The translations under genes were made by a program, and so were the position numbers. Source: Escherichia phage DT571/2. From it: a stretch of DNA of 64,000 nucleotides. The stretch is taken from the sequence record NC_047749.1; one strand, given 5' to 3'. Positions within the stretch are counted from its first letter, which is position 1. Each line of letters begins with the position of its first letter. This document shows, piece by piece, positions 1 through 29,230 of the stretch. A model generated the notes under the pieces. The model did not search any database. It was not told the origin of the DNA and saw nothing but the letters and a program-made list of their open reading frames with translations.

Positions 1-73
1 GCTCACCGCCGGAGGCGAAAATACTTAGTCTGCTAACCGCCACCCCCCGTTACTATTACTCTGCTAACTATTT

Positions 74-123: not shown

Positions 124-858
124 TTACGCTACTTTTAATTTCTCAATATATTGTTGTGGGCTGCAACTATATTCTGCGCGCTCCTCCTCGGTCATACCTT
201 CCCAACATAATTGCAAGCGGTCGGCTAGGAACTGATAATCATTATCATCTTCAAGAGATTCATCAATAAAGGTTTCGCCGATCAATGTGACGCCTATTGA
301 TAGAATATCGTTAACGGCTTGCGCGTCCAGCGTTTTAAATCCATATGCCGCCGCCGCTGATAATACGCCTTTATGATCATCAATCATCGTGAAATCAGCG
401 TTCGGATATAGCTGTTTGAATAGCTCAAAATAATGGCTTTTATATATAGCGTCTTTACTGTGGTATATTTCGCTAACCTTATCAGCCGTAAAATATTTGT
501 GAAGTGTATCGCGGGAAAATACGCGGATATTGCTATTCCCACGCCCTCGCAGACCTTGTTTGCGCAAATAATAATAATCCGACTTACTCATCAGGCGAGC
601 GGTGCAAATAATGTTTAACGTGTTGGCGTCATTCATGCATTGGCGCATATAGGTAACGAGCGGCAAAAGCGTATCCTGCATTATTAACTCATGTTTGCAC
701 GCTTCATTTTTATACTTATTTAAATCTAAATCGCCTTCAATATCAAAGCAAGGCGCTACACGGTGGGCGGAGTTAATGATCGTGCCGTCCAGATCCCAAA
801 TCATTACGCGGGAAATATGCGGGTAATTGCGGGAAATATTCTTTTTATCTTGATTCAT
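124..858 (-). CDS. dmp: 5'-deoxyribonucleotidase, HAD superfamily (T5 Dmp-like)
   Basis: 244-aa ORF; HAD motif I DxDGT (MIWDLDGTII) near N-terminus; first gene at left end as in T5. Confidence 0.8.
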   Translation of the reverse strand: MNQDKKNISRNYPHISRVMIWDLDGTIINSAHRVAPCFDIEGDLDLNKYKNEACKHELIMQDTLLPLVTYMRQCMNDANTLNIICTARLMSKSDYYYLRKQGLRGRGNSNIRVFSRDTLHKYFTADKVSEIYHSKDAIYKSHYFELFKQLYPNADFTMIDDHKGVLSAAAAYGFKTLDAQAVNDILSIGVTLIGETFIDESLEDDNDYQFLADRLQLCWEGMTEEERAEYSCSPQQYIEKLKVA

Positions 859-932
859 TTTGTTACGTTCTCCATTAAAGGGATTAAGTTAATTTAATCC
901 AGCCCATACAGTGGGCTGGAGTATTTCAGTCA

Positions 933-1334
933 TTAAAATACCAGACCATAAGCCAAAGCATCAGCGATAACAGTAATATCCTCGCCAGATACACCGGAAC
1001 GAATACCGGCGCATGTAAATACCTTCGCGCTCATTAACTGATCATCAAGACAAGCGGGGCAAGGCGCGACAACTGCGAAAGCTAAACCAGCTTTTGCGGC
1101 GTCAATAATAGTCGTTTCTTGTTTCATCGTATCAATGTAAACGCCTTTCGCCTTGATGCGGCTAGATAGCTTGCCCGTGGTGTAGGCGAAAGTAGTGATC
1201 TGTAGCGCCTCATTAAATTCGATTAAGTCATCAACAACGTGCCCCGCCTCGACGTGATAGCGCTCACCGGTAGAATAAACTAGGACGATTGCAGACTGCG
1301 CGCGATCGAATGGGATACGGTTGTAAGTAGTCAT
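933..1334 (-). CDS. pre-early protein, A2-like by size and position
   Basis: 133-aa ORF between dmp and A1; no motif recognised. Confidence 0.55.
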   Translation of the reverse strand: MTTYNRIPFDRAQSAIVLVYSTGERYHVEAGHVVDDLIEFNEALQITTFAYTTGKLSSRIKAKGVYIDTMKQETTIIDAAKAGLAFAVVAPCPACLDDQLMSAKVFTCAGIRSGVSGEDITVIADALAYGLVF

Positions 1335-1403
1335 GCGTATAACTCCAATTAATTTAATAAACTTTTATGGCGGCGGTATATTTCGCCCGCCCGCCTGATT
1401 TAT

Positions 1404-3068
1404 TTACGCGAAAAATTTGCCGTTTTTAAAGTCGATTAACGTGCGCTGCCCGTTTGCATATGTAATTACATGCGTTTGCGTCCAGCTTGATGCGCCGACG
1501 TTGTAGCCCATATCGAGGCTGCCCGATACGCCAGCAGTATATACGCCGCCGTAAATGCTGGCGGTATGGGTGTGCCCCGTGTTTAATTTGCCCAACTTTT
1601 TAAATTGCTTCGGATTGCCGCGGCTCCCGTTGATGCCGTTGTGACCGTGTACGCCGCACTCAATGCCTGCAATCTTGAATGATTGATCAGTCGTTAGGAA
1701 TATGGCGTTAAACTCACAGCCTGCAACCTTGCGCAGCGCATAATCCAGCACGTTGAAAGTATCGTCATTTTCTGCAATAGCTCCATAGATCGCGGCGTTG
1801 AGGCGGTGATATAGCTCTGCGTTTGCTGGATCGTCTTTAATGTTAGCGTTGCGATCATCCAGCCAACGGGATAACGCCAGATCGTGGTTTGACTCAACAA
1901 TGATTGTTTGCGAGAAATCGCGCTCCATTGATTCCAATACACGCCCCGTGTCGATAAGATCATCTAAAACCTTATCACGTCCGGCGGCGTACTGTTTTGC
2001 TAGGAATACGCCAGATGCGCGATTGTGGTGGTTGCGTGATGTAAAGTCATGCACATCATGCACGAACTGATATTTAGGTTTAAGAATATCAAGCAAACTA
2101 TTTTCGCCCGCCCATGACGCTTCAGCACACGCCTTATCTAATTTTTCAGCGTGCACGTCGCCATACTGTAAACCTAAAACATGCCCCGATGTTTCATAAC
2201 ATCCGGCGGGAGTGGCGCAAATATTCAAATCATAAAAAACGCCGGTTTCATCCATCGTCTCAAGCTGGCGAACAAAAAATGCCCCGTCCTCGTCAAACTC
2301 GACAATCAGCGCGCCAAAGTTATGTAACGCTTCGGCCTTTTGCCCTGCTTTCTGCTGAATGTAGTTTTTTAGCGTTGCCGCTCCCGTTGAGTACATACGG
2401 CGCACTACTTCACCTTTGAGCGCTGGAACGCTTTCTGCGGTGATTTTAGCTGCTCCAATTGCCAAACCTTCAAGATCAAGCGCTGTTGCAGTCTCAGCGA
2501 ATCCAGAAAGCGGGTAGTCTGCCGTTGGCAAAACATTAATCTCAGCCATGAAAGCAAAGCGGCGACTATTTAAAAACACGTTTTTATTACAGATATATTT
2601 ATCAAAAGCGGAATCATATTTGATCCCGTCCGCACCTTCTCCATTCTGGAATCCTTTTTTGTTATAAATGAACTTGCTAACCAGCAAATCAGCGCCGATA
2701 AATTGGGCGTAATGTTCAAGTGAGGCTAAAAAGTTTTTATGCGGGAACGTGTTGTTCTGGATTGATGTTATAATGAAGCGTTTGCCCTGCTTTACTTCCC
2801 ACTGTTCAACCGTGCTAGAAATAATTCCCGCCGCCTCTGGGCGCTCGTCGTTTTTAACGGCTTTTGATGCTTTCGCCTCTTTTGGTTTCGCTGGTTTGTT
2901 TGCTTCCAGCCAATCACAAATTGCGGTCGAATGTTTTGCCGTATCGTACACCGCTTTTGATATATCGTCGCAGACTTCCAATCTAGTAGCGCGCAGACGT
3001 TTACCGTAAAAATTAAAATCAGCGGCCAGCTTCAGGATAACGGTTTGTTTTTCTGCGGAAATAACCAT
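1404..3068 (-). CDS. A1: pre-early protein A1-like, calcineurin-type metallophosphoesterase (probable nuclease)
   Basis: 554-aa ORF; phosphoesterase motifs GDVHAE, VESNHD, GVHGH, GHTHT; size and position match T5 A1. Confidence 0.8.
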   Translation of the reverse strand: MVISAEKQTVILKLAADFNFYGKRLRATRLEVCDDISKAVYDTAKHSTAICDWLEANKPAKPKEAKASKAVKNDERPEAAGIISSTVEQWEVKQGKRFIITSIQNNTFPHKNFLASLEHYAQFIGADLLVSKFIYNKKGFQNGEGADGIKYDSAFDKYICNKNVFLNSRRFAFMAEINVLPTADYPLSGFAETATALDLEGLAIGAAKITAESVPALKGEVVRRMYSTGAATLKNYIQQKAGQKAEALHNFGALIVEFDEDGAFFVRQLETMDETGVFYDLNICATPAGCYETSGHVLGLQYGDVHAEKLDKACAEASWAGENSLLDILKPKYQFVHDVHDFTSRNHHNRASGVFLAKQYAAGRDKVLDDLIDTGRVLESMERDFSQTIIVESNHDLALSRWLDDRNANIKDDPANAELYHRLNAAIYGAIAENDDTFNVLDYALRKVAGCEFNAIFLTTDQSFKIAGIECGVHGHNGINGSRGNPKQFKKLGKLNTGHTHTASIYGGVYTAGVSGSLDMGYNVGASSWTQTHVITYANGQRTLIDFKNGKFFA

Positions 3069-3165
3069 AATATTAAAACTCCATTAAAGGGATTAAGAAC
3101 GTTTGTTATTGGCAAATATTGCCAAATATAACGCTGCTTATTAACAGCGTTATAATTTGCAATAC

Positions 3166-3411
3166 TTAACTGATCGGCATCAGGCTAGAACTAACACCAC
3201 AAACAACGGCGGTAATAAAACAAAATAAGCCTAAACGCTTTGCTAACTTTGATTTGCGTTTAAAGTAATATGAATCCAGATCATTCTGGAAATAAGCGAA
3301 CAATAATGAGGCCGCTACAATAAATAAACCTAGAATTAACGATTCAGTGGGATAAAAGATCATTTTAATAATTCCAGTTAAAGGGAAATTATAGTGGGGA
3401 ATATTCCCCAC
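3166..3411 (-). CDS. small membrane protein
   Basis: 81-aa ORF with two hydrophobic segments. Confidence 0.5.
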   Translation of the reverse strand: MGNIPHYNFPLTGIIKMIFYPTESLILGLFIVAASLLFAYFQNDLDSYYFKRKSKLAKRLGLFCFITAVVCGVSSSLMPIS

Positions 3412-3420
3412 TAATTAAAT

Positions 3421-3837
3421 TTATTCACCTGCGGATTGTTTTACTTCATCTGCTACGCCTAGTAATTGCGCTACGGCGTCCAGCGTTTCTAATTTTGCGC
3501 TTTCCAGACTTGCCAGATCGTCGGCGTCTTTGATAATGCCGGAATCAATGGCATGTTTAGCAATAACGCGCACATAATGCGCCTTGCGGATTGAACTACC
3601 GCCGCCAACTTTGCGCGGTTTATCGCTTTTCTGATACGCTTTTGCGCTGGTCAATTTTGAGCGAACAGACACAGGGGAAGTAGCGCCCACTGTTTTGGCG
3701 ATCTCTTTCAGGCCGTCGCTGTTTGCGAACTCTAAACCGTTTTCATTGATTAATTGCTGATACATAGAAACGGCTTTTTGGGTATTTTCTTCATTCCATG
3801 CAAATTTTGCGGATTTTTCGGTTTTAACGTTAGTCAT
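3421..3837 (-). CDS. hypothetical pre-early protein
   Basis: 138-aa ORF, tightly packed in leftward operon. Confidence 0.55.
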   Translation of the reverse strand: MTNVKTEKSAKFAWNEENTQKAVSMYQQLINENGLEFANSDGLKEIAKTVGATSPVSVRSKLTSAKAYQKSDKPRKVGGGSSIRKAHYVRVIAKHAIDSGIIKDADDLASLESAKLETLDAVAQLLGVADEVKQSAGE

Positions 3838-3937
3838 GGTATAAACTCCAATTAATTTAATTTAAGGGATAAGATTAACATAATGTTAATCGTTATATTT
3901 CCCCAATAGTTCGGGGAAATATAAAGTTAACACTAAA

Positions 3938-4189
3938 CTATGCTACAGCTTCCAATTTTTCGTTACGTTGAACAACTTTTACAACGTCGCCAGATTTAAC
4001 GCGAACACTAAAAACGGTTTTTCCGTTGTTGCTACGTTCCGTTTCTGCATATACTGCATCAATTACATCGAACGGCATGAGCGCCGCGCCTTTGATGCGT
4101 TCGGCCTTTCCGGTTGCCTCGTCTGTTTTAGTAACGAAAGGGATGAAAACGGATTGACCAATTTTTGGCGCGGTGATAGCGTTTTTCAT
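3938..4189 (-). CDS. hypothetical protein
   Basis: 83-aa ORF. Confidence 0.5.
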   Translation of the reverse strand: MKNAITAPKIGQSVFIPFVTKTDEATGKAERIKGAALMPFDVIDAVYAETERSNNGKTVFSVRVKSGDVVKVVQRNEKLEAVA

Positions 4190-4423
4190 GGTATAAACTC
4201 CAGTTATTTGATGGATTGTTCCGCATTACCTGCTAAAAAATAATAACAGGTAATAAGAAAAAATCCGCTCACCGTTAAAATCAATTTAAGGAACTCCACA
4301 CAGGCCGCTATATCCCGTTAGGGGGCGGGGCACATTATGGCAAGTACCGGCCGTCAAATTTTACCAAGTTATCGCTCTTGTTGAATCGGGTACATTTTAA
4401 AGCCTATCGGCTAGGGCGTCAAA

Positions 4424-4594
4424 TTATTTTTCGTTTTCTTTTAAATTAGAATTCTCCCAACTGAATTGCATCTCGCAAAATATTTTCCCATCTTTATGAT
4501 GGTAAGCGATCTCGCTCCCGTGGTTAGCACAGAAAGCGATCACTGCCTCAGCTTGTTCTACCGTGATATTGTTGGCCGTTTCTTTGATTTTCAT
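4424..4594 (-). CDS. small hypothetical protein (56 aa, not in ORF track)
   Basis: manual translation MKIKETANNITVEQ...; AAGGAG Shine-Dalgarno 8 nt upstream of ATG. Confidence 0.45.
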   Translation of the reverse strand: MKIKETANNITVEQAEAVIAFCANHGSEIAYHHKDGKIFCEMQFSWENSNLKENEK

Positions 4595-5220
4595 ATCGTC
4601 GTCTCCTTATAAGGTTAATAAGTTTGCCGCCGATGGGCTTTAAAATGCACCTGATTTTTAAAGAGCGCGGCGGTAAACTTTCCGCCGTGTAGTTCGTCAT
4701 TGCCGCCCTACGAGATAAATAATAGGGAATACCCAAAAAAGGTGCAACCTTAATTTTGTAAAGAAATGTAAAGAAAGCAAATACCCGCACCGCGTCCGGC
4801 GATCGCCCAAGTTTAAAGGAAACAGGCGCGCGGATACCATAAAACCGAGCTGATTGGCAAGTAATTTTTTCATTTTTATTTGCCTTGCCCTACTTGACAA
4901 AACTTAAAAAGCTCGTGGTGACGATAAACGGGCTATCCCTTTATGATGGGATACCTGAAAAATTTACCGCGTTGTAGGACGTTTTAGGCCGCTTATCTTC
5001 GATTTAACAAATATTTAACAAAAGCAAAATTGAAAAATAGTTTGAGAAGGTATTGACTTTTTAAAATCAAGACTAAACGAGTTATTTTAAAAAATTAATT
5101 AATTGACTTTTATTTGTTGTTGTGTAGTAGAAAGATAGCAGACTAATAATTGCTAGAATGATAATCATGCTGGTGATTGTAACAGACTGAACTATTAGCA
5201 GACTACTGATCCCGGAAAAT

Positions 5221-5260
5221 CTCATTAGCCAACTAACTATCTCATTAGCCAACTAACTAT
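5221..5260. repeat. 20-bp direct repeat x2 (CTCATTAGCCAACTAACTAT)
   Basis: two identical adjacent copies. Confidence 0.9.
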
Positions 5261-5270
5261 TTCATAAGTT

Positions 5271-5450
5271 ATAATAACTATAAAAATAATCACCGTTAAA
5301 ATAATCACTATAAAAATAATCACCATTAAAATAATAACTATAGAAATAATCACCATTATAATAATCACCATTAAAATAATCACTATAAAAATAATCACCA
5401 TTAAAATAATCACTATAAAAATAATCACCATTATTATAATCACTATAAGA
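5271..5450. repeat. 15-bp tandem repeat, about 12 copies (ATAATCACYRTTAAA)
   Basis: read directly; the 68-aa ORF 5237..5443 is its translation artefact. Confidence 0.9.
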
Positions 5451-5486
5451 AACTATCGGCTTAAGTGAGAACCACTATCATTTAAG

Positions 5487-5568
5487 TTATCCACAACGTT
5501 ATCCACAGCACAAAATGATTTGACACGATAGGCGGCGATATAAAGATTTATCCACAGACTTATCCACA
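5487..5568. promoter_or_regulatory. DnaA-box cluster, 4 perfect TTATCCACA in direct orientation
   Basis: boxes at 5487, 5499, 5548, 5560; two imperfect boxes follow to about 5600. Confidence 0.7.
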
Positions 5569-5872
5569 GGTTATCCTACTGTATATTTATCCAGGGTAAA
5601 AAGATAGTGTTTACAACTGCAATCAATTTTGAGCGGCCTAAAACGCTTTCTAACGAGCTGATCGCTGTAGGGTAATATTAAAGTAAAGCCTTTACCCGTC
5701 GGCCTAGAGGCTTCGCCGTGTTTTGCTCTTTACTGCACCGCTGCGCGGTTAGCATAAAACTAGGTGTTAGGCAAGAAAAATAAAAAGTAAAGTAAACGTT
5801 GCCCCTAGAAAGAAAATAATTTTACCGGTAACATCGAAAGCGGGTAATAATTAACCTAATGTAAAGTTTTGT

Positions 5873-5901
5873 AAGGCCCGCCATAATCAGCGGCCTTTTT
5901 T
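5873..5901 (+). terminator. putative rho-independent terminator
   Basis: stem AAGGCC/GGCCTT with 13-nt loop followed by TTTTTT. Confidence 0.45.
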
Positions 5902-5965
5902 GTTATACTGCCCTTACACCGTTTAAGGACGGTTAAAAATTTCCCGAAAAATTTGGAGGCTTAAA

Positions 5966-6145
5966 ATGGTTATTTTTCGATCTATTCTGGCGGGTATCTT
6001 GGGCGCTATTTTAACTCTATTTGCTACCGCTTACGGTATTCAAGATTCTTATTGCGGTTTAGTAAATACTAAACCTATGGTTATTATTGGCGCGGGTATC
6101 GCTGTTTTTTCTTATTTGCTGGGCTGCATGAATAAAGGAGAATAA
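5966..6145 (+). CDS. small membrane protein (59 aa, not in ORF track)
   Basis: GGAGG SD then ATG; hydrophobic translation MVIFRSILAGILGAILTLFATAYG... Confidence 0.45.
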   Translation: MVIFRSILAGILGAILTLFATAYGIQDSYCGLVNTKPMVIIGAGIAVFSYLLGCMNKGE

Positions 6146-6147
6146 AA

Positions 6148-6360
6148 ATGATCCGCAACGTTTCTCTTGCTCGTTCCAAAGGTTTTAAGCTGGTGGATGT
6201 AAACACGTTCGAGCGTCCTGGTTGTAAAATCGAATATATAGCGCGGAATAAAAACGCTTTCCGCGTTACAGAAAAGAGATTCGATAAACGCGGCAACGTG
6301 ATAGCTGAAACGGTTAAATATTTTGCCACCTTTTACGCGGCCTTTCGTGGGGTATTATGA
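6148..6360 (+). CDS. hypothetical protein
   Basis: 70-aa ORF with AGGAG SD. Confidence 0.5.
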   Translation: MIRNVSLARSKGFKLVDVNTFERPGCKIEYIARNKNAFRVTEKRFDKRGNVIAETVKYFATFYAAFRGVL

Positions 6361-6482
6361 AGAGCGTTGTTATTGTTATCCTTGCAATGGTTGGCGGTTT
6401 TACCACCACCTTGTTTAGAAATGATCCTCTTTTGCTAGGGATCTTTATGCTTTTATCTGGTTATCTGATCGGGAGGTTATAA
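6357..6482 (+). CDS. small membrane peptide (41 aa)
   Basis: ATGA start/stop overlap with upstream ORF; hydrophobic. Confidence 0.35.
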   Translation: MKSVVIVILAMVGGFTTTLFRNDPLLLGIFMLLSGYLIGRL

Positions 6483-6483
6483 A

Positions 6484-6828
6484 ATGGTGATTTATGAAGG
6501 TGATCGCCTTGTTGCTGATTGCCGTCCGGCATTGTTAGCAAACTACTTAAACCAGCTTTCGCCAGTATATAAAGGCGTTATAAATATTTATGAAGGCGGG
6601 GCGCATTATAAGATTAATGCGGTCGTTGCCCGTGAACTAGCGTTTCAATTTTTAACCTTTTCATCTTGCAATATTCAGGTCATGGGTGAGGCGTTAATTG
6701 CAGAAAATGAAGATGATTTTATTAATATCTTTCGCAAGATATGCACCGAGCGCCTGATAATGAAAGGGGCATATATTCAATCCACTGCGGATAGTATTGA
6801 AACGGCTTTTCGAAAGGTGGCACAATGA
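6484..6828 (+). CDS. hypothetical protein
   Basis: 114-aa ORF with GGGAGG SD. Confidence 0.5.
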   Translation: MVIYEGDRLVADCRPALLANYLNQLSPVYKGVINIYEGGAHYKINAVVARELAFQFLTFSSCNIQVMGEALIAENEDDFINIFRKICTERLIMKGAYIQSTADSIETAFRKVAQ

Positions 6829-6966
6829 AGCTATATATTTTCGCGGGTAATGTTGAGGCTGCAAATGATTCCGCTGGTGGCGATAGCGTTCGCCATTATT
6901 GGCAAAATTATATTTACTAGGCGTAATGATCACGGGGCACAACTATCAGGGAGTGCCCCTGATTCT

Positions 6967-6991
6967 CAAATGAGAATCATTCTCATTTGAC
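6967..6991. repeat. 25-bp perfect palindrome TCAAATGAGAAT-C-ATTCTCATTTGA
   Basis: read directly; shares the AATGAGAATCATT core with the downstream 22-bp repeats. Confidence 0.85.
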
Positions 6992-7209
6992 CGCGCCCGC
7001 GATGGTTAGCACACTAATGATTAGGGTGTTACGTGTCGCCTTGTGTGATCGTTAGCGGGCTAACTAATTTTCAAGCCTCCTCCAGATTTGCCCTTGTTTT
7101 AGTATCCCCATCAAAATAAAACGCGTTAGAAAGCGATTCAGGGCGTTTTAGGCCTATATTAGAATTATTCACTGCGTAGGAATACTGTATATTTATACAG
7201 TAGAATAAC

Positions 7210-7292
7210 CTGGGGATAAGTCGGTGGATAACGCTTCAAAATGGCTAGAATTTTGTCAAGGCAAATCGTGCTGTTGATAAGTCTGTGGATAA
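7210..7292. promoter_or_regulatory. DnaA-box cluster in opposite orientation to 5487..5568
   Basis: GTGGATAAC at 7224 and TGTGGATAA at 7284, plus imperfect TGGGGATAA at 7210. Confidence 0.6.
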
Positions 7293-7299
7293 CTTAAAT

Positions 7300-7590
7300 A
7301 ACAGTGTTTCTCACTTCCGTTTTTAAATGCGAATCATTATCATTTGCATTCCACTTCTTAAATGAGAATCATTTCACTTCTTGAATAGTTCTCATTCCCT
7401 TTCTTAAATGAGAATCATTTCACTTCTTGAATAGTTCTCATTTCACTTCTTGAATAGTTCTCATTCCACTTCTTAAATGAGAATCATTCCACTTCTTAAA
7501 TGAGAATCATTCCACCTCTTAAATGAGAATGATTATCATTCGCATTCCACTTCTTAAATGCGAATGATAATCATTCTCATTCGCATTCCG
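7300..7590. repeat. about 10 tandem copies of a 22-bp unit (CACTTCTTAAATGAGAATCATT / CACTTCTTGAATAGTTCTCATT) with flanking short inverted repeats
   Basis: read directly. Confidence 0.85.
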
Positions 7591-7617
7591 GCGAGCAGGG
7601 CAATTGCCCTGCGCTTA

Positions 7618-8350
7618 TGTGCAAATCCGACAATTGCTCCAAGGGTTACGCGAGGGCATGTATGTGCAAATCCGACCCATTTTTTGGTAGTGTGCAAATC
7701 CGACCCCAAAAATTTATAAATTCGTGAGAGTGACAAATCTGTCTCCCAAAAACTCCAGCAATCACGAACTGCGTTCGAATCCTGTGGGGTATGTGCAAAT
7801 CCGACACGGTTTTTCTAGGATTAAGATGTGCGAATCCGATGAAATTTTTGTGACTTCGATGAGAGGGTGTGTGATTGTATAGGTTTGAGGAGAAGATGAG
7901 AGAGCGAGAAAAATTTTGGGGCTAGAAGTGTATGGGCGCAGGATTGGTGCGGAGCACCTGATTTGCGGGGGTTTTGGGGGATAGTGGAGATAATTTGGGG
8001 AAATTTGAGATAGGTGCAGAAAAAGTAAAATTTTATTAGCTAAAGGGGGCAATATAGCTTGACAATTGAAAATTCTTGTGGCTCTAAAAACTCAGGCAAT
8101 CATGGGCCTTCGGCCCGAAATAATGCTGCTATTTTCAGGAGATTATATGTTCCTAAAAACTTAGGCGTTTGTGCAAATCCGACCATAAATTTCTAGAAAC
8201 ACAATGTGCAAATCCGACAGTAATTCCTGGAAATGTGTTTTCAAAAAATGTCTCCTAGAAATAACCGCCCTCCCTATAACCGCCCTCCCTATAACCGGCC
8301 TAGGTATGTAACGTTGGAGGGAAACTGCCCTAGAATATGTGCAAATCCGA
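7618..8350 (+). repeat. dispersed co-oriented 14-mer TGTGCAAATCCGAC, 8 copies
   Basis: copies at 7618, 7663, 7691, 7792, 7827 (variant), 8170, 8205, 8338; several preceded by CTAGAA. Confidence 0.85.
8261..8297. repeat. 15-bp tandem repeat x2.5 (ATAACCGCCCTCCCT)
   Basis: read directly. Confidence 0.85.
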
Positions 8351-8725
8351 TTAATATTTTTGTGTGATCCCTAGAATTTGTGCTTATCAATTTCCTAGAA
8401 ACTTAGGAGTCTGCTAGAAAGTGTTGAGCCATCCTAGCAGATGAGCGGCAACCGGTGTATCATCTTGAACACAGATATTGCCTTTAAATTTTTATCAGTT
8501 ATTTAAAAGTAAATAGTCCCCCATTTCATGTGAGATTCCTCGTGGGGCGCGTGAGTATTACGGAAGACTTAGTAATTAGATCTATACTCGTGCTGTCGCA
8601 ACGTATAGACGTAATACTAAGTGTAATAATCATCGCCCCTAGAGTTCAAAACAAGAGTTGTTTTTAATCTATGAGATTATTATAACATGTTTGGGTATGA
8701 GAATGCAAGAACTTTTTGTTAACGT

Positions 8726-9082
8726 TTATACTTCCTCCTCGAGATTGGTATTAGGATCGTAAATTTTCTTGGCTCCTGTATTTAATAGGAATCGCTCTGC
8801 AAGTAGTGGGTGAATATCAAAGAACTCTGTGCATCCTTCGAATCCCTTTAAATTACAGCGGTATTTCTTAAAGTAGATATGAGCAGCGGCTTCTAGATCT
8901 CTAGGATTATGGGTTTCATAAATCCCATACACGTATAAATCGTCAAAACCACGATAAACTATATTATCTAAGTTTAGTGTTTGAATCCTATTATGTGGAT
9001 TCACACTGATACCGATCTTTGTTCTTTTAGGGATCTTCGTCAGATCCCTATTTGCAAGAATATATGCTTTATATAGTGACAT
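8726..9082 (-). CDS. T5orf172 / GIY-YIG-like domain protein
   Basis: 118 aa; KIGIS.NPHNRI motif and C-terminal EFF resemble the T5orf172 domain. Confidence 0.6.
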   Translation of the reverse strand: MSLYKAYILANRDLTKIPKRTKIGISVNPHNRIQTLNLDNIVYRGFDDLYVYGIYETHNPRDLEAAAHIYFKKYRCNLKGFEGCTEFFDIHPLLAERFLLNTGAKKIYDPNTNLEEEV

Positions 9083-9809
9083 TCTTTCTAGCCTTTAGAT
9101 AGATTCCTTTAGATGCTAGATAGATATATGTAGCAAGGAATGAAGATGTAGATCCTGTTTCTTCAAGAGTAATAGATCCTTTTGCATAACGCTTAGTTCT
9201 AGGAGCCTGGTTAAGCACAAGTGCAGTGAGACTACCTAATCCTAGCGCATCCATTAAACGTTTGAAGGAGTCCTTTTCATCGTGGATAGCATATAGAATG
9301 TAATCTTCCGCTGTAGTTAGTTCTATATCGCGATGATGTGCCACTGCAATCCGTGCTACTACAGCTCCAATCGTTCTATAAATATCTTCAAACGTAATGC
9401 TAGTTTCAAAAGCTAATGCTGGAAGATGATCGAACTTACATTTCTTAGGCGGAATAAGAAGTTGTTCAGGATAAGCTTCTAGTGCCTGACGAACGTTTGC
9501 TTCTGGGTATGTTGGCAAAGGTTCATCTATAATAACATGTAAGAAATTAGCTCTGTGTCCTTTAGCAGTTGGATCTAAAGACTTCAATACTTTGTTCATA
9601 TCTACGTATGAATACGCTAGATCTGCTTGTGGGGCATTAATATCAAACTTAATCTTCTTACCCTCCCATTTAGCAGGGAACATCTCACAAACAAACATTA
9701 CTGCATGTTTAACCTCTGGCTCCAGCTCTGATAGACATTTGTGATCTGCTGTTACTGCTAGAGCGAGAATATTCTTAAATTTATTAGCTTCTTCAATCAT
9801 ATATCCCAT
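9069..9809 (-). CDS. hypothetical protein
   Basis: 246-aa ORF. Confidence 0.55.
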   Translation of the reverse strand: MGYMIEEANKFKNILALAVTADHKCLSELEPEVKHAVMFVCEMFPAKWEGKKIKFDINAPQADLAYSYVDMNKVLKSLDPTAKGHRANFLHVIIDEPLPTYPEANVRQALEAYPEQLLIPPKKCKFDHLPALAFETSITFEDIYRTIGAVVARIAVAHHRDIELTTAEDYILYAIHDEKDSFKRLMDALGLGSLTALVLNQAPRTKRYAKGSITLEETGSTSSFLATYIYLASKGIYLKARKNVTI

Positions 9810-10138
9810 GCCTGCTGACTATTATCACTAACTTGTGTCTTTTTCTCTCTTCGTGGTTTAAAAGTTCCTGTAGTATTACTTTTACTAGGTTCTAATTTAT
9901 ACCACAGCATTCCTAGCTGGTTAACCATATGAGCAACATTTCTAGGGGTCAATGGCGGTAGGGATTCACAGTTTGATATCTCCCTTAATATATTAAATAG
10001 TTCTGCCTCTTTAGCTTTATTGTTTACTACCACCACGTACTCTAATGTTTCTACCTCAGAATCCTCATCCTTATAGTAGAGGCTAAGAGTAATTAAATTC
10101 TCCCCAGCAGGGGCTATTTTTGTTTTACCAAATATCAT
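9797..10138 (-). CDS. hypothetical protein
   Basis: 113-aa ORF. Confidence 0.5.
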   Translation of the reverse strand: MIFGKTKIAPAGENLITLSLYYKDEDSEVETLEYVVVVNNKAKEAELFNILREISNCESLPPLTPRNVAHMVNQLGMLWYKLEPSKSNTTGTFKPRREKKTQVSDNSQQAWDI

Positions 10139-10734
10139 TAACTACCTCTCTTATCTTCGTTAAGAGCAGCTCCTAGTGCTTCCATAATTGCATCTTCTAT
10201 ACTTCCATGCTTACTAGGATTGCTTAAGTGAATAGTATATGAGTTCCTAGAAACTCCAGAGTCCACAGGTGCTGCGCTTTTCCTATCAGACTCAAAAGCT
10301 TCTTGGGTATGTTTCAACTGTACAGAAGGCCCATAGTCTTCCCCAACTCGATAGGACTGATTAGACGACAGCGTACCACCGCAGGGAACATTGTGCAAAT
10401 CCGATGGATTATTTAATAGTGCAATACCACCTCTTGGCCACGAGTCACTAACATGAGTACTAGGACGGTTAACCTCAGTCTTCACGAGTTTATAACCAGC
10501 ATCTATTAATGCATTAATAAGGTTATCAGCTGGAATGCGAGCCTTGCCAAAAATCTCACGAGCGTTGTTGAGCCTACCTTCAAAACCTTTACATGCTCTA
10601 ATATTAGTGTGTGCAAAGGTTAGCTTCATAGATTTGAATTGTACAGTAGCAGTTAAATCTTTAAAGCTATAATCCCACGTATTCAGTTCATGATCTGGTA
10701 CTACTTGAATAGATTGCTGTGCATATAAAGTCAT
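10138..10734 (-). CDS. hypothetical protein
   Basis: 198-aa ORF; contains one copy of the 14-mer at 10393. Confidence 0.55.
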   Translation of the reverse strand: MTLYAQQSIQVVPDHELNTWDYSFKDLTATVQFKSMKLTFAHTNIRACKGFEGRLNNAREIFGKARIPADNLINALIDAGYKLVKTEVNRPSTHVSDSWPRGGIALLNNPSDLHNVPCGGTLSSNQSYRVGEDYGPSVQLKHTQEAFESDRKSAAPVDSGVSRNSYTIHLSNPSKHGSIEDAIMEALGAALNEDKRGS

Positions 10735-24893: not shown

Positions 24894-24968
24894 TGGTGCG
24901 GGATACGAGAGTCGAACTCGTGTCTACTGGTTGGAAGCCAGTTATTCTAGCCGCTGAACTAATCACGC
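24894..24968 (-). tRNA. tRNA-Gly (anticodon UCC)
   Basis: hand fold: encoded CCA, perfect T-arm ACGAG/TTCGACT/CTCGT, anticodon arm ACTGG-CTTCCAA-CCAGT. Confidence 0.7.
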
Positions 24969-24979
24969 ATTAATTTGGT

Positions 24980-25057
24980 TGGCAGGGGATATTGGATTTG
25001 AACCAATGATCTCGACTTCAAATGCCGTAGCTTTAGGCCAAGCTAAGCTAATCCCCA
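24980..25057 (-). tRNA. tRNA-Gln (anticodon UUG), U1-U72 mismatch
   Basis: hand fold: CCA, G73, T-arm ATTGG/TTCAAAT/CCAAT, anticodon loop ATTTGAA. Confidence 0.55.
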
Positions 25058-25063
25058 ATTGTT

Positions 25064-25139
25064 TGGCAGAAGGTAGTGGATTTGAACCACTGATCAGGGT
25101 TTCAGAGACCCCAGCCTTAACCGACTTGGCTCAGGTTCT
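25064..25139 (-). tRNA. tRNA-Gln (anticodon CUG), imperfect acceptor stem
   Basis: hand fold: CCA, G73, D-arm resembling E. coli tRNA-Gln, anticodon loop CTCTGAA; 5' boundary uncertain. Confidence 0.5.
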
Positions 25140-25303
25140 TCAAGGCGCTTACCTTCATGATCTACTCGAATGAGTCCACATCCTTCGCAAACCACAACTG
25201 CACCATAACCTTCTTTGACCTCAGCTTCTGTAATCAGACCAGAAAGATCACCAGTATCTCTGCCCCACATATCAATGGAGCATTGTTTGCAGAAATCAGC
25301 CAT
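25094..25303 (-). CDS. small zinc-ribbon-like protein; 3' end overlaps tRNA-Gln
   Basis: 69 aa; CxxC...CxxC (CKQC, CEGC). Confidence 0.4.
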   Translation of the reverse strand: MADFCKQCSIDMWGRDTGDLSGLITEAEVKEGYGAVVVCEGCGLIRVDHEGKRLEEPEPSRLRLGSLKP

Positions 25304-25305
25304 AA

Positions 25306-25533
25306 TTAATCCTTATTACAAGTGGTAGAGAGGATGGTACGATCGGAGATCCAACCGCCAGTGTAAGCACCATTGACTTTATATTCAGTCAAAGTACCGT
25401 GACCACGAATAGCGAAAACTGTTAGGGTTTTCGTGCCCCCATAACCATCTTTAACAGTTACGGTACAATCTAATGATGTGCCGATAGTGCAGCCAGCTAA
25501 AGTCAGAGCAGCAATCAATACTAAGTATTTCAT
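25306..25533 (-). CDS. lipoprotein
   Basis: 75 aa; signal peptide with lipobox LAGC. Confidence 0.55.
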   Translation of the reverse strand: MKYLVLIAALTLAGCTIGTSLDCTVTVKDGYGGTKTLTVFAIRGHGTLTEYKVNGAYTGGWISDRTILSTTCNKD

Positions 25534-25556
25534 GTTGTTATCCTTGTTAAGTTAAT

Positions 25557-25631
25557 TGGTGCATCCTCAGGGAATCGAACCCCAATCGTAAAGTTCGTGG
25601 CTTTACATTCTTTCCATTGAAATAAGGACGC
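25557..25631 (-). tRNA. tRNA-Arg (anticodon ACG)
   Basis: hand fold: CCA, perfect anticodon stem TAAAG/CTTTA, loop CCACGAA (C at position 33). Confidence 0.65.
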
Positions 25632-25637
25632 AATATT

Positions 25638-25714
25638 TGGGGTGGCTAGTGGAATTCGAATCCACATAGGCCTGATTCACAATCAGGATCATTAACCAAT
25701 TATGATATAGCCAC
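25638..25714 (-). tRNA. tRNA-His (anticodon GUG)
   Basis: hand fold: perfect acceptor GTGGCTA/TAGCCAC, T-arm GTGGA/TTCGAAT/TCCAC, anticodon loop TTGTGAA, CCA encoded. Confidence 0.8.
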
Positions 25715-25938
25715 AATTGAAAACTCGCAGGGTTAGCGAAACCATCCTCAATTAGCATGTTCTAGAATACTAATCAAGTTATCTCCTATTGCACGCAGCT
25801 CAAGACGAGTACGAATTTTCAATTGTGGCGGCTCTCAGAAACTCTTCTATTCTAGCCTCAGAAGCTTACCCCCGAACGCATGTCGGGAAAGTCTTTCCAA
25901 GAGCATCAAATAGCACCGTTACACTTTGAGCCATTATT

Positions 25939-26033
25939 TGGAGGTAGGTAAGGGGATCGAACCCTTACACCGTATCACTACGATCAACCGATTTCAAGTC
26001 GGAGTCCAGCGCCAGCCGTTGGATTGACCTACC
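25939..26033 (-). tRNA. tRNA-Ser (anticodon UGA), class II
   Basis: hand fold: perfect acceptor and T-arm, anticodon loop CTTGAAA, long variable arm. Confidence 0.7.
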
Positions 26034-26045
26034 ATATAAATTGTT

Positions 26046-26136
26046 TGGCGGAAGAGGAGAGATTTGAACTCTCAAGCCGTTTTACCAGTCAGCCACTTTC
26101 CAAGCGGTTTTCGTCGCCAATTCGATTTGCTCTTCC
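26046..26136 (-). tRNA. tRNA-Ser (anticodon GGA), class II
   Basis: hand fold: perfect acceptor GGAAGAG/CTCTTCC, T-arm GAGAG/TTCAAAT/CTCTC, loop TTGGAAA. Confidence 0.65.
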
Positions 26137-26172
26137 AATAATAAGATGATGCCTCTATCACGCCAGGCAGTT

Positions 26173-26245
26173 ACGCCTCGCTGGGATTCGAACCCATTAA
26201 AACAGCTCAACCGAGATAGTAGGTTTAATTTACTCTGACCATCAA
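26173..26245 (-). tRNA. tRNA-like element (T-arm only, no acceptor pairing found)
   Basis: canonical T-arm TGGG/TTCGAAT/CCCA at 26181..26197 but no complementary 5' acceptor located. Confidence 0.3.
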
Positions 26246-26248
26246 ATT

Positions 26249-26325
26249 TGGTGCGTGACAAGGGATTCGAACCCTCAAAACCCGACTTCTAGGGACGGTA
26301 TGTATGCCAATTCCATCAATCACGC
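26249..26325 (-). tRNA. tRNA, anticodon not confidently assigned (loop CCTAGAA would give UAG)
   Basis: hand fold: CCA, good acceptor and T-arm, anticodon stem with one U-U mismatch, D-arm unclear. Confidence 0.55.
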
Positions 26326-26330
26326 GTATT

Positions 26331-26405
26331 TGGTGGAGAAAGAGGGAGTTGAACCCTCGTCTTCTGCGTGCAAAGCAGATGTTCTACCATTAAACTATAT
26401 CCCCA
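26331..26405 (-). tRNA. tRNA-Ala (anticodon UGC)
   Basis: hand fold: CCA, T-arm GAGGG/TTCAACT/CCCTC, perfect anticodon arm TCTGC-TTTGCAC-GCAGA. Confidence 0.65.
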
Positions 26406-26642
26406 AATTCTTTAGTTTACTAAGGCTATTAGCTCGGCGTAACTACAGCACCTTCACTTCGAGCGGAAGGAACCGCGTCATCTCGCAAACCCGATACACT
26501 ATTCAGTTGCCGCTGAATCTAGTGGACTAATCTAGAACCTCCCCCAAATTGTAGGGATCGTGCTTTTTGGCAGCCAGTCCTAGGTCGAGCTAATACCTTA
26601 GTGAACTATGATGAGGATTTCTCCCCATCAATTTATATAAAT

Positions 26643-26671
26643 ATTATAACAAGAAATTAAGCATCAAGCAA
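26643..26671 (-). promoter_or_regulatory. T5-early-type promoter driving the tRNA cluster
   Basis: RC of TTGCTT-17-TATAAT; no ORF downstream, leads into tRNAs. Confidence 0.55.
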
Positions 26672-26772
26672 ATGAGTTTTTCCTTGAAATTGGTAGCGGG
26701 TTCCAGTACTGCCCTGGACTTACTTAGCTTATGAGACTAAGAAGAACTCTATGCCTTCCACCCGCAATTGTT

Positions 26773-26836
26773 TGGTCAGTGCGGCAGGACTCGAACCTGC
26801 GACCTGAAGCATCCAAGGCTCCCACGCTACGCACTG
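26773..26836 (-). tRNA. atypical 64-nt tRNA-like element (no room for a D-arm)
   Basis: CCA, perfect 7-bp acceptor CAGTGCG/CGCACTG and perfect T-arm GCAGG/TTCGAGT/CCTGC, only 29 nt between them. Confidence 0.4.
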
Positions 26837-26844
26837 AAAGTTTA

Positions 26845-27192
26845 TTAGTTTAACCGTAAAGTATTATCTACTTCACCATTAATTGTTCGGCATTCCTCTG
26901 GGATTGTCGGAGTGGCCTTGTATTCCCACCACTCAGCACCGTCATATTCCCCACGTTCTAGCCAAGTTCCATCGGCAAACCATACATTACCATAAAGTAA
27001 TTGTCCACCGTATCCAGAATCATATTCAAAGTCTAGGTTATTAAGAAAATCCTCAATATCTTCTTCTGTATAACCTAAAGGTAATACCCAGACTTTTTTA
27101 TCCCCATAATACCCGAATTCTATTTTAATACACTTAACTTTAGAATTGGTATTTTTTAAGGCGAGTAATAGCTCTTCTTTAGCATTACGCAT
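26845..27192 (-). CDS. hypothetical protein
   Basis: 115-aa ORF. Confidence 0.55.
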   Translation of the reverse strand: MRNAKEELLLALKNTNSKVKCIKIEFGYYGDKKVWVLPLGYTEEDIEDFLNNLDFEYDSGYGGQLLYGNVWFADGTWLERGEYDGAEWWEYKATPTIPEECRTINGEVDNTLRLN

Positions 27193-27217
27193 AGTATATT
27201 CTCATACTGAGTTAATT

Positions 27218-27291
27218 TGGCGCGACCGATGGGATTTGAACCCACATTCCCCGTGACAGGGGAGTACCATTACCAAGCCAGCCCCTGTCGC
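27218..27291 (-). tRNA. tRNA-Asp (anticodon GUC)
   Basis: hand fold: CCA, T-arm, anticodon loop CTGTCAC. Confidence 0.7.
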
Positions 27292-27300
27292 ATAATTCAT

Positions 27301-27486
27301 TTACTCATATTTGAGTTTTTCAATAGCTGCATTAAGTTCTTTTAGAGCTTCACGACGTTCTACCTGACCTTGAAGTTCTTCAAGAAGTTCCGCTTTCAGA
27401 GTCTCAATAATTTTACCACGAACCTTGATATTATTAATCAGATTATCACGATCAGCTTCTAGTCGAGCAATTGCATGAGTTGTCAT
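27301..27486 (-). CDS. small coiled-coil protein
   Basis: 61-aa ORF. Confidence 0.45.
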   Translation of the reverse strand: MTTHAIARLEADRDNLINNIKVRGKIIETLKAELLEELQGQVERREALKELNAAIEKLKYE

Positions 27487-27513
27487 ATCTATTTCCTCAG
27501 TTATTAATGAAAA

Positions 27514-27586
27514 TGGTATCTGTGGCTGAATTCGATGTCAGCAATGATAGCTGGTTGGCTACCGGTTTACTTAACTCTACACAGAA
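27514..27586 (-). tRNA. tRNA-like element with non-canonical loops (possible pseudo-tRNA)
   Basis: CCA plus 6/7 acceptor pairing, but T-loop and anticodon loop are 8 nt. Confidence 0.3.
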
Positions 27587-27588
27587 TT

Positions 27589-27666
27589 TGGCGGGCCGTG
27601 TAGGATTCGAACCACCAACCCCGAAGGGCACGGATTTACAGACCGCTGCAATAGCCATTCTGCCAA
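27589..27666 (-). tRNA. tRNA-like element with Tyr-like anticodon loop CTGTAAA (degenerate)
   Basis: CCA, weak T-stem, variable-arm hairpin CCC-TTCG-GGG, no acceptor pairing found. Confidence 0.35.
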
Positions 27667-27750
27667 CGATGTATATTTAAAAGTATTCAAATACTTGTTT
27701 AAACACTTTTAAATATGTTTCCAACTTAGATAACTATTATATCTAGGTTT

Positions 27751-27792
27751 AAGGCACTGAGCAAGTCAGATTTTGAAGAATTTGCTCAGTGC
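27751..27792. other. stable hairpin (11-bp stem GCACTGAGCAA / TTGCTCAGTGC)
   Basis: read directly; lies in leader between promoter at 27868 and tRNAs. Confidence 0.6.
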
Positions 27793-27867
27793 TATATTAG
27801 TTAGTCGAACTTAGGAGTAACAATTAAAGAGAATGGGAGTTCGAAAACTTCATCAATTTATATAACT

Positions 27868-27897
27868 ATTATATCAGAAATTTAAAGCAAAAGGCAA
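27868..27897 (-). promoter_or_regulatory. T5-early-type promoter (tRNA leader)
   Basis: RC of TTGCCT-18-TATAAT with conserved leader. Confidence 0.45.
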
Positions 27898-27927
27898 GTA
27901 CTTTTTTAAAAATTCTGTTTGGAGGAG

Positions 27928-28134
27928 CTAAACTCCAGATTCTTCAGCCAAGTCTAGACTAATAAGAGTTATAGCCATAATTGCCGCACCGTGTTCTTTT
28001 TCTCCGGTGTTTTTAGCAGAGTCTATAATACCCTTAATCTGTTCGTAATAACTTTTTACTTCTTGTTCAATGCCGGCCTCGGCTATCATGCCTTTAGTCA
28101 TGAGTCGTTGCATGGTAATTTCACGGTTAGCCAT
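27928..28134 (-). CDS. hypothetical protein
   Basis: 68-aa ORF. Confidence 0.45.
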   Translation of the reverse strand: MANREITMQRLMTKGMIAEAGIEQEVKSYYEQIKGIIDSAKNTGEKEHGAAIMAITLISLDLAEESGV

Positions 28135-28309
28135 GATGTTTCTCCAGTTTCATCTTTAATAGTTTACAAATGAAGTCAATATCTTCATCCGTGCCTAGAT
28201 CTCTATCTTCAAGAGTTGCCTTGAAGTTTTTAGTCAACTCCATAAGGATGACTTCCCTAGAACGACGTGTTGGCGGAGGTGGATGTCTATACATCTTATT
28301 TCCTTAATT

Positions 28310-28384
28310 TGGTGGGTCGGAGGAGAATCTAACTCCTACTCGTTAGCTTATGAGGCCACCGCTTTAACTTTAAGCTACCGACCC
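28310..28384 (-). tRNA. tRNA-Met (anticodon CAU)
   Basis: hand fold: perfect acceptor GGGTCGG/CCGACCC, perfect T-arm, D-stem GCTT/AAGC, loop CTCATAA. Confidence 0.75.
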
Positions 28385-28390
28385 TATGTT

Positions 28391-28479
28391 TGGCGGAAGA
28401 AGCGGGAATCGAACCCACAAGGCTATATTTCAAACCGACAGATTAGCAATCTGCTGCAATACCGTTATGCTATTCTTCC
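28391..28479 (-). tRNA. tRNA-Ser (anticodon GCU), class II
   Basis: hand fold: perfect acceptor GGAAGAA/TTCTTCC, anticodon arm GCAGA-TTGCTAA-TCTGT, long variable arm. Confidence 0.7.
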
Positions 28480-28500
28480 GAATTTATAAGATATATTATA

Positions 28501-29037
28501 TTAGAAATTTAGCTTCATAGCAAGAAAATTTTTCAAGTTTTCGGTAGACATCTCATCCACATCTACAGGAGAAACAAACCCATCTAATTGTCTAGCAAAT
28601 TTTTCACCGGCAGGATCATTATCCCCAACAGCTACCAATTTAAAAGGTAGTAATTTCAATTGCTTTAACAACGCTTTTCCGGGGGAAGAACCCAACATTG
28701 CTAGGGCAGGATAACCAGCATTATGTAATGCTACAGCCTTAAATACAGATTCAGCAATCAATACTACTTTTTCATCCCCATTGAGAGTTTCTAGCCCCCA
28801 TACACACTGTGTGGTAGAATAAGTAAAATATCTAGCTTCAGAGGGGCACTTACCATGACCTTTTGGAGCAGAAGGATTATAAATCTGATAGCCTCTCAGC
28901 ATCCCAGAGAAGTCGTACAATGGGACTGTTAGCCATCCCTCCGGGCTTAACCAGCAATGATATTTATCTGTATCAAACCCTCTGGATAAGAGATGTTCTG
29001 TTAGTTCATCAACAGTCATATTAGATTCCTCTCTCAA
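28501..29037 (-). CDS. small Toprim-like domain protein
   Basis: 178 aa; LIAESVFKA and VAVGDNDPAGEKFA resemble Toprim E and DxD motifs. Confidence 0.5.
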   Translation of the reverse strand: MREESNMTVDELTEHLLSRGFDTDKYHCWLSPEGWLTVPLYDFSGMLRGYQIYNPSAPKGHGKCPSEARYFTYSTTQCVWGLETLNGDEKVVLIAESVFKAVALHNAGYPALAMLGSSPGKALLKQLKLLPFKLVAVGDNDPAGEKFARQLDGFVSPVDVDEMSTENLKNFLAMKLNF

Positions 29038-29048
29038 ATTATAAATAT

Positions 29049-29077
29049 ATTATACAGAGAATTTAGCATTCAAGCAA
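29049..29077 (-). promoter_or_regulatory. T5-early-type promoter
   Basis: RC of TTGCTT-17-TATAAT. Confidence 0.55.
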
Positions 29078-29206: not shown

Positions 29207-29230
29207 TACTTCAGAGATTACATGCGGGTG

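Follow-up and report, generated by a model that had tools for sequence, protein, structure and literature searches.

The tandem repeats near the left end of the genome of Escherichia phage DT57C, a T5-like phage, are probably best regarded as two separate features: a 15-bp array, which would be a non-coding, hypervariable, AT-rich VNTR grown from a single motif, and a 20-bp repeat, which would be a distinct and private duplication. Neither of them is a homologue of the repeat block of the T5 injection-stop signal (iss), and an essential or sequence-specific function is not to be expected for them; the likeliest contribution of the array would be that of an easily melted, very AT-rich flank, constantly placed beside a module of DnaA boxes. 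As regards its origin, one pre-existing ATAATAACT-ATAAA-type motif would have been expanded through slippage during replication, unequal recombination or both; the resulting array would continue to expand, contract and homogenise separately in each lineage; the 20-bp repeat, in turn, would derive from a recent and separate duplication of a conserved motif, which occurred in DT57C only.

The window analyzed is a stretch of 64,000 nucleotides, whose coordinates are those of the DT57C genome, 1–64000. By megablast, positions 4000–8500 match Escherichia phage DT57C (KM979354.1/NC_027356.1) at 100% and with the same coordinates, and Tequintavirus relatives by the hundred match the same segment at 80–93%. 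The arrays are found within the left terminal repeat, i.e. in the first-step-transfer (FST) DNA; the copy in the right terminal repeat is identical, which does not represent independent evidence for the left one. According to the DT57C annotation, the leftward pre-early operon (dmp, A1, A2 and others) is located to the left of the arrays and its last gene is DT57C_000007, at 4697–4873, while the rightward genes start at 5966 and are homologues of T5.013–015, the T5.015 homologue ending at 6828. The untranslated region between the two gene sets (4874–5965, 1092 bp) contains both arrays, which begin 345 bp into it and not at its start, where the preliminary description had placed them. The 15-bp array lies at the boundary where “Repeat Region 1” meets “Repeat Region 2”, inside the central untranslated part of the terminal repeat. 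An inverted-repeat search also identified a 25-nt inverted repeat (4980–5004/5621–5645, 80% complementary), which encloses a cluster of short motifs, the arrays and the DnaA-box module; this is probably the IRB/IRB' pair placed by Davison in Repeat Regions 1 and 2.

Tandem Repeats Finder, together with the register of the units, bears out the organization first described, with a 20-bp unit present twice and followed by twelve 15-bp units, and the limits given for it (5221–5450) are right within 2 bases. The 15-bp array occupies 5271–5450 on the plus strand; the program reports 11.5 copies at 5271–5443, with 81% matches, a score of 227 and the consensus ATAATCACCATTAAA. Two unit sub-types, ATAATCACCATTAAA and ATAATCACTATAAAA, can be recognized, and alternate units are more similar to each other than adjacent ones (90% vs. 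80%), indicating a higher-order period of 30 bp; in addition, an exact 30-bp duplication is present within the array at 5361–5420. The pattern ATAATCACYATWAAA, allowing up to two mismatches, has 12 matches within the array and a single one in the remainder of the 64 kb, compared to 1.8 expected by chance, and none of 100 shuffles reaches 13. All twelve 15-mers have the same orientation and the AT content of the array is 83%, against 61% for the window, in agreement with the AT-rich and co-oriented repeats initially reported; the top strand is nearly devoid of G (3 G and 28 C). Based on nearest-neighbour energies, the 100-bp stretch with the lowest stability in the entire 64 kb is 5325–5424, with −1.011 kcal/mol per step, the mean of the window being −1.285 ± 0.071 kcal/mol per step. 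No match to the exact array dimer was found in IMG/VR, so the combination of units seen in DT57C is not common.

Two structural interpretations of the array were also considered. An Rfam scan provided only sub-threshold chance matches, every one of them outside the array, and its single strand folds no better than shuffled sequences (ssDNA fold, z = −1.1); a structured RNA or DNA is thus ruled out. Planar intrinsic curvature is disfavoured by geometry alone, as A-tracts repeated every 15 bp correspond to a rotation of 154 degrees.

The comparison of copy numbers was extended to 29 T5-like genomes, which comprise 15 GenBank phages and 14 IMG/VR genomes, the latter retrieved by exact matches to the invariant right flank. 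The 15-bp unit count, which is assembly-derived and in many cases based on short reads, ranges from 0 to 12 among these genomes, with no value missing, while the flanks are at least 90% conserved; in 533 records, the BLAST matches to a 491-bp query vary in span between ~326 and 520 bp. T5-type genomes contain one unit, with an HNH endonuclease gene inserted just to the left, and two IMG/VR genomes have no units and also lack the 20-mer and a promoter-like site, while keeping the DnaA module. The variants of the unit are homogenized in a lineage-specific manner: Gostya9 has seven units of ATAATAACTATAGAA, a G13 variant that is present once in DT57C, its closest relative; Kenya-K38 has seven identical units of ATAATAACTATAAAA; and amplification of a dimer is seen in DT57C, with a 30-bp period, and in Th1, KPP2018 and Spc35, with a 31-bp one. 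The distance between the 20-mer and the IRC element of the DnaA module is 34, 66, 82, 98, 126–128, 157–159, 173–176, 186, 205, 216 or 253 bp, indicating that there is no helical-phase constraint. Taken together, 0–12 units between near-invariant flanks, lineage-specific homogenization and the absence of helical phase are the signature of a VNTR shaped by slippage or unequal exchange, which suggests that slippage was the generating process.

The same properties, namely short head-to-tail units, conserved flanks, copy-number polymorphism, lineage-specific homogenization of the unit variants and location in a terminal repeat, are shared with the VNTRs of bacteria, phages and large DNA viruses. 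Examples include the 16-nt repeats of the monkeypox ITRs (PMC10101126) and the tandem-repeat diversity of Marek's disease virus (PMC12425393). The array is an undescribed instance of a VNTR in Tequintavirus and is notable only for its DnaA-box neighbour and its extreme AT content. That the arrays derive instead from sequencing or assembly errors is hardly credible. Short AT-rich tandem repeats can indeed be mis-counted, the 20-bp duplication occurs only in DT57C and the copies in the two terminal repeats are not independent; however, homologous arrays, with differing counts and variants, are found in many independently sequenced phages, which makes it unlikely that the existence of the 15-bp array is an assembly artefact, and ordinary reads can span an array of only 180 bp.

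Only 12 nt separate the end of the array (5450) from the IRC-spacer-IRD module of Davison's Repeat Region 2, which the inverted-repeat search located at 5463–5594 on the plus strand; array and module thus adjoin each other and form one untranslated block inside the 25-nt inverted repeat. The module contains four perfect DnaA boxes, TTATCCACA, on the plus strand at 5487, 5499, 5548 and 5560, arranged as two pairs with 3 bp between the boxes and located 36–117 bp from the array. Its inverted partner, at 7185–7316 on the minus strand, is the IRD'-spacer-IRC' module, the core of the iss homologue; the two arms are 132 nt long and 77% complementary, and the right one has a single perfect DnaA box, on the other strand. 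The segment at 5463–5594 therefore corresponds to IRC-spacer-IRD as it is defined, i.e. an inverted copy, of ~131 bp, of IRD'-spacer-IRC' with paired DnaA boxes 3 bp apart. The 15-bp array, which is outside the inverted-repeat arm and contains no TTWTNCACA site, is not part of the Repeat Region 2 module. The two elements also differ in their conservation: the array is hypervariable, has no DnaA box and lies outside the 132-nt inverted repeat, whereas the module is conserved even in distant relatives, such as Klebsiella phages and My1, which match only at query positions ~334–465, corresponding to 5463–5594 of the window.

In Davison's analysis, IRC-spacer-IRD belongs to Repeat Region 2 and IRD'-spacer-IRC' to Repeat Region 3, where it represents the presumed core of iss, and both modules are argued to act in the injection stop through membrane-bound DnaA; the word “tandem” never occurs in that preprint (bioRxiv 10.1101/866236). 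A later paper points out that the DnaA-box model of the injection stop still awaits experimental tests. The T5 iss region itself, or Repeat Region 3, comprises IRD'-spacer-IRC', the 23-bp DRE/DRC repeats and the DRD repeats, according to the accounts of Heusterspreute (1987), Wang (2005) and Davison (2020), as they are cited in the preprint (bioRxiv 10.1101/866236).

The preliminary description had compared the arrays with the repeat block of the T5 injection-stop locus, and this resemblance holds for the general organization of the region. Both are untranslated, repeat-dense FST DNA of the terminal repeat, with co-oriented tandem repeats; in both, a tandem array with variable copy number is placed just outside an IRC arm that has paired DnaA boxes. 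The 15-bp array flanks an inverted copy of the iss core. On the right side, the tandem array has a 23-bp unit, CATTCCACTTCTTAAATGAGAAT, repeated 8.2 times (~8 copies) at 7347–7582 on the plus strand, as detected by Tandem Repeats Finder, and begins at a distance of 31 nt from IRC', on its outer side; the two flanks thus mirror each other, with the 15-mer array and IRC on one side and IRC' and the 23-mer array on the other. Given these observations, and Davison's proposal that Repeat Region 2 participates in the injection stop (bioRxiv 10.1101/866236), the 15-bp array might be taken as a part, or a duplicate, of the injection-stop repeat block.

This interpretation is very unlikely, and the part of the initial comparison that made the array the counterpart of the T5 block does not stand. 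In both annotated T5 records iss is located at 9140–10149, downstream of T5.015–017, and the major nick is annotated at 9748/9749. The alignment showed that T5 9100–10450 is collinear, with long identical runs, with positions ~7090–8330 of the window, and that the T5 repeat block corresponds to 7347–7582; indeed, the sole substantial tandem array in the first 12 kb of T5 is a 23-bp one, ATTCCGCTTTTTAAATGAGAATC, repeated 4.1 times at 9574–9668, i.e. ~4 copies compared to ~8 in DT57C. The 15-bp array, at 5.2–5.45 kb, is instead ~2 kb to the left of the expected stop or shear position. The iss occupies untranslated DNA at the right extremity of the terminal repeat, with the rightward pre-early genes upstream of it and the FST shear point directly to its right, whereas the 15-bp array lies upstream of the T5.015 homologue. 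Its unit is not of the iss type (the 23-bp ATTCCGCTTTTTAAATGAGAATC or the TGTGCAAATCCGA repeats), being 15 bp and not 23 bp long and unrelated in sequence, and the array is far more AT-rich. The local alignment of the array with the iss region has a score of 25, where shuffles give 22.5 ± 2.7 and pieces taken at random from the window 22.5 ± 2.2, and the alignment of the two units has a score of 12, compared to 11.3 ± 2.0 for shuffles; likewise, none of the near-matches to the 15-mer in the first 12 kb of T5 falls inside iss. We know of no link between the 15-bp array and the shear or stop point.

T5, where iss was defined, does not have the array at all. The homologous spot in T5 (~6040–6110) contains one core of the 20-mer and isolated unit-like 15-mers at 6030–6044 and 6076–6090, so no signal from the array is to be expected in a dot-plot with T5. 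That the array is homologous to iss was rejected on the basis of the alignment of T5 Repeat Region 3 with the window, the pattern search in T5, and the local alignment against shuffles. For work on two-step DNA entry this amounts to a correction, since the elements to be considered are the iss homologue at 7090–8330 and the inverted duplicate at 5463–5594, and not the AT-rich array.

The locus is also dispensable in T5, according to the literature: a viable T5 mutant that lacks “hegG to 017”, and forms smaller plaques, has been described (preprint 10.64898/2026.04.02.716235). The junction primers used for that mutant map to T5 5361–5393 and 9161–9186, indicating that the deletion corresponds to T5 5394–9160, so that the mutant retains neither the 20-mer, nor the isolated 15-mer units, nor any part of the IRC-spacer-IRD module. 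The viability of this deletion, which speaks further against a role of the array in the injection-stop block, implies that any function of the locus is non-essential in laboratory conditions. Dispensable does not mean without effect, as the plaques of the mutant are smaller and many genes are also missing.

The vicinity of the DnaA boxes raises another possibility, that the array is a DNA-unwinding or flexible-hinge element working together with them. DnaA bound at 5487–5568 would melt or bend the AT-rich repeats, with an effect tuned by copy number, and this would contribute to anchoring or pausing the entering DNA, as a secondary stop near IRC, or aid the synapsis of IRC-spacer-IRD with its inverted partner in iss. 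The array includes the 100-bp stretch of lowest stability in the 64 kb, and a tandem pair of perfect DnaA boxes lies 36 bp beyond its end; moreover, Davison notes the oriC-like arrangement of the boxes and recalls an unexplained second FST band of ~5.8 kb in T5, close to IRC (bioRxiv 10.1101/866236). An AT-rich flank is retained to the left of IRC in 29 of the 29 genomes, even where the sequence has been replaced: the 100 bp adjacent to IRC are 73–88% AT, with a mean nearest-neighbour ΔG of at least −1.12, regardless of whether the array or unrelated DNA upstream of the HNH gene occupies this position. By comparison, 0.6% of the 100-bp windows in the 64 kb of DT57C reach −1.10 and 3.1% reach −1.15. 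Instead of selection, the conserved AT content of this flank might simply be a consequence of promoter-rich intergenic DNA or of the AT-rich sequence that precedes the HNH gene.

The array shares with oriC-type and plasmid or phage origins the presence of clustered, perfect and paired DnaA boxes beside the most meltable, repetitive and AT-rich DNA of the region, the boxes being adjacent to the least stable repeats. However, the repeats are not conserved wherever the boxes are, since these are kept in phages with 0–1 units, T5 included; furthermore, the repeats are dispensable and variable, and the whole module can be deleted in T5. Unlike oriC, the array contains no GATC and no 13-mer consensus, and the orientation of the boxes with respect to the AT-rich side differs: they read TTATCCACA away from the array, which is opposite to what we take to be the orientation of R1 beside the unwinding element of oriC. 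The mirror-side flank (7316–7416) is only 67–71% AT, and helical phase is not conserved. No initiator gene is found nearby, and the T5 replication genes are silent during first-step transfer (bioRxiv 10.1101/866236); as far as they are cited in the same preprint, reports place the T5 origins mid-genome. We therefore consider a hinge or unwinding function unlikely; were it correct, the natural copy-number variants would provide a ready allelic series for Davison's DnaA-anchoring model. The VNTR interpretation, in which the array would be an AT-rich flank of the module, remains the preferred one.

The non-coding status of the array needs to be discussed in view of its annotation. GenBank reports a CDS, DT57C_000008, at 5237–5431 on the minus strand, for a “repeat completion protein” of 64 aa. 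An ATG-initiated ORF is indeed present and a 15-bp unit preserves the reading frame; however, the translation, MVIIFIVIILMVIIF..., is of low complexity (MVIIFIVIIL...), no Shine-Dalgarno sequence is found upstream, and the absence of stop codons from the 15-bp unit in three of the six frames is enough to keep those frames open across the array. DT57C_000008 has no PHROG match and no Pfam match; in the relatives, ORFs are annotated at the array on either strand, or not at all, and neither T5 nor the genomes with 0–1 units have the ORF. Taking together the low complexity, the lack of a Shine-Dalgarno sequence and of PHROG/Pfam matches, and the inconsistent strand in the relatives, DT57C_000008 is a spurious gene, and that the array encodes this protein is extremely improbable. 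The array is thus an annotation trap, with spurious ORFs called on it in several GenBank records; on the other hand, its 0–12 units make it usable as a strain-typing marker.

The 20-mer, ATCTCATTAGCCAACTAACT, is a perfect tandem duplication at 5219–5258 on the plus strand (5219–5238 and 5239–5258, 100% identical); Tandem Repeats Finder extends it to 2.3 copies at 5219–5265, with 96% matches and a score of 87. It is conserved as a single copy in all 14 aligned relatives and is duplicated solely in the DT57C assembly, where the perfect identity of the copies indicates that the duplication is recent. The 20-mer also contains the −35-like hexamer belonging to a promoter-like site, TAGCCA-N18-TATAAT, at 5246–5275 (plus strand), which was identified by consensus match only and whose −10 overlaps the first unit of the array; the site is kept in 15 aligned phages, including T5, and is missing in the two IMG/VR genomes devoid of units. 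Other conserved hexamers matching the promoter consensus are found at the opposite side of the array, at 5471–5442 on the minus strand.

These sites, and the conservation of the units, lead to a further reading, in which the 15-mers would be iteron-like protein sites (e.g. for the pre-early A2, or for H-NS, IHF or Fis), or a promoter, UP-element or leader for pre-early transcription. T5 promoters are known for their AT-rich upstream regions. Unit positions 1, 2, 4, 5, 7 and 15 are nearly invariant over 107 units (ATAAT.AC), a conservation that is inflated by the regular expression used for unit calling and by concerted evolution, and the last unit together with GAAACTATCGGC is well conserved wherever the array exists; these two features could reflect some sequence-specific constraint. 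A conserved cluster of TTAGCMRACTA motifs also adjoins the array. In spite of this, the promoter scan found no more promoter-like sites than in shuffles (7 vs. 5.7 ± 2.3), and the number of units varies freely between 0 and 12. Iteron arrays have helix-phased units of 17–22 bp, in a fixed number and with an initiator gene nearby; the DT57C array does not show this combination, as the 15-bp spacing places successive units 154 degrees apart, unlike phased iterons, and no such gene is annotated in the surroundings. To our knowledge, no cognate protein has been described for the 15-mers. On balance, iteron-like sites or a promoter-type element are quite unlikely, and an AT-rich VNTR still provides the preferred account of the 15-mers.

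The TTAGCMRACTA cluster includes four co-oriented motifs, revealed by a motif search on the plus strand at 5135, 5195, 5225 and 5245 (cluster 5135–5255); it is part of a near-invariant non-coding block located directly to the left of the array, and the last two motifs are carried by the 20-mer. The cluster may possibly represent a protein-binding site. The same motif occurs in the opposite orientation at 26–36 and 57–67, less than 70 bp from the physical left end of the genome, and further copies are present at 6535 and 7006. As a decidedly speculative alternative, to which we assign a low probability, the array might be a tunable “melting/hinge” cassette, whose length would set the opening or bending of the DNA by DnaA or by a pre-early protein, and hence either a secondary entry pause near IRC or when and how strongly the divergent pre-early genes are transcribed. 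If so, changes in copy number would represent an adaptation of early infection to different hosts, similar to that of a contingency locus, and the AT-rich flank, together with the TTAGCMRACTA family shared with the genome end, would point to one protein-DNA architecture organizing the FST DNA. As to the frequency of the motif, eight copies are found in the first 12 kb compared to 1.05 expected, a number reached by none of 200 shuffles, and T5 has the same pattern, with six copies compared to 1.0 expected and again none of 200 shuffles.

Several GenBank records annotate hypothetical proteins over the array of twelve 15-bp units (window 5271-5450), on either strand, and in DT57C the array-spanning ORF is named "repeat completion protein". 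The annotated frames lie at 5237-5431 (-) in the window and, in the loci of related records, at 614-931 (-) in L005, 742-927 (+) in L006, 742-897 (+) in L009 and 614-850 (-) in L011. These ORFs are artefacts of a repeat unit that is free of stop codons.

The array is missing altogether from two phage genomes, IMGVR_UViG_2974655256 (L023) and IMGVR_UViG_2974569706 (L027), which also lack the 20-mer and the promoter-like site; in their alignment (A3), the DNA upstream of an HNH endonuclease gene directly adjoins IRC, the left element of the DnaA-box module, which is itself intact. The junction beside IRC appears to be a hot spot of homing-endonuclease insertion and sequence replacement.

Further to the right, T5 has an annotated promoter upstream of T5.011, whose hexamers we read as TTGCCT-N17-TATCAT. 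Judging from the sequence, the DT57C counterpart (window 5780-5830) appears to be truncated with respect to T5: when the two sequences are compared by eye, a -35-like TTGCCC is retained, while the -10 element is gone at the deletion that takes out T5.011-012. The rightward genes of DT57C lie at 5966-6828, to the right of this apparently truncated promoter.

In the true homologue of the T5 injection-stop signal (iss), a 23-bp array (window 7347-7582) has about 8 copies here versus about 4 in T5, and therefore the iss repeat block is itself variable in copy number. To its right, TGTGCAAATCCGA(C) (repeat family D5) recurs at least six times at scattered positions in 7615-8360; these copies are conserved with T5 and are probably the "DRD" repeats described for the T5 iss region. 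A tandem repeat of ATAACCGCCCTCCCT (2.7 copies, 96% matches) is located at 8261-8301; the T5 repeats aligned to it are more diverged than those of the window.

A motif search placed TTAGCMRACTA at 26-36 (-), 57-67 (-), 5135-5255 (+, four copies), 6535 (+) and 7006 (+). The terminal repeat is rich in this motif far beyond chance: the first 12 kb hold 8 copies where 1.05 would be expected, and none of 200 shuffles reached 8; two inverted copies fall within 70 bp of the physical left genome end, and T5 exhibits the same pattern. TTAGCMRACTA may be a protein-binding site that connects the genome end with the central untranslated region. As to the extent of the repeat, its boundary in DT57C differs between sources: the GenBank record annotates a right terminal repeat of 7596 bp (KM979354.1 100104-107699, corresponding to 1105-8700 of locus L034), whereas the Davison preprint (bioRxiv 10.1101/866236) gives an LTR of 8081 bp.

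Elsewhere in the window, and distant from the array, a perfect 22-bp tandem duplication, AATTTATGAATATATTATACAG, is found at 33764-33812 (2.2 copies, 100% matches). T5-like phages usually carry a tRNA gene cluster, and here 11 clustered tRNA genes occupy 24894-30861 (-).
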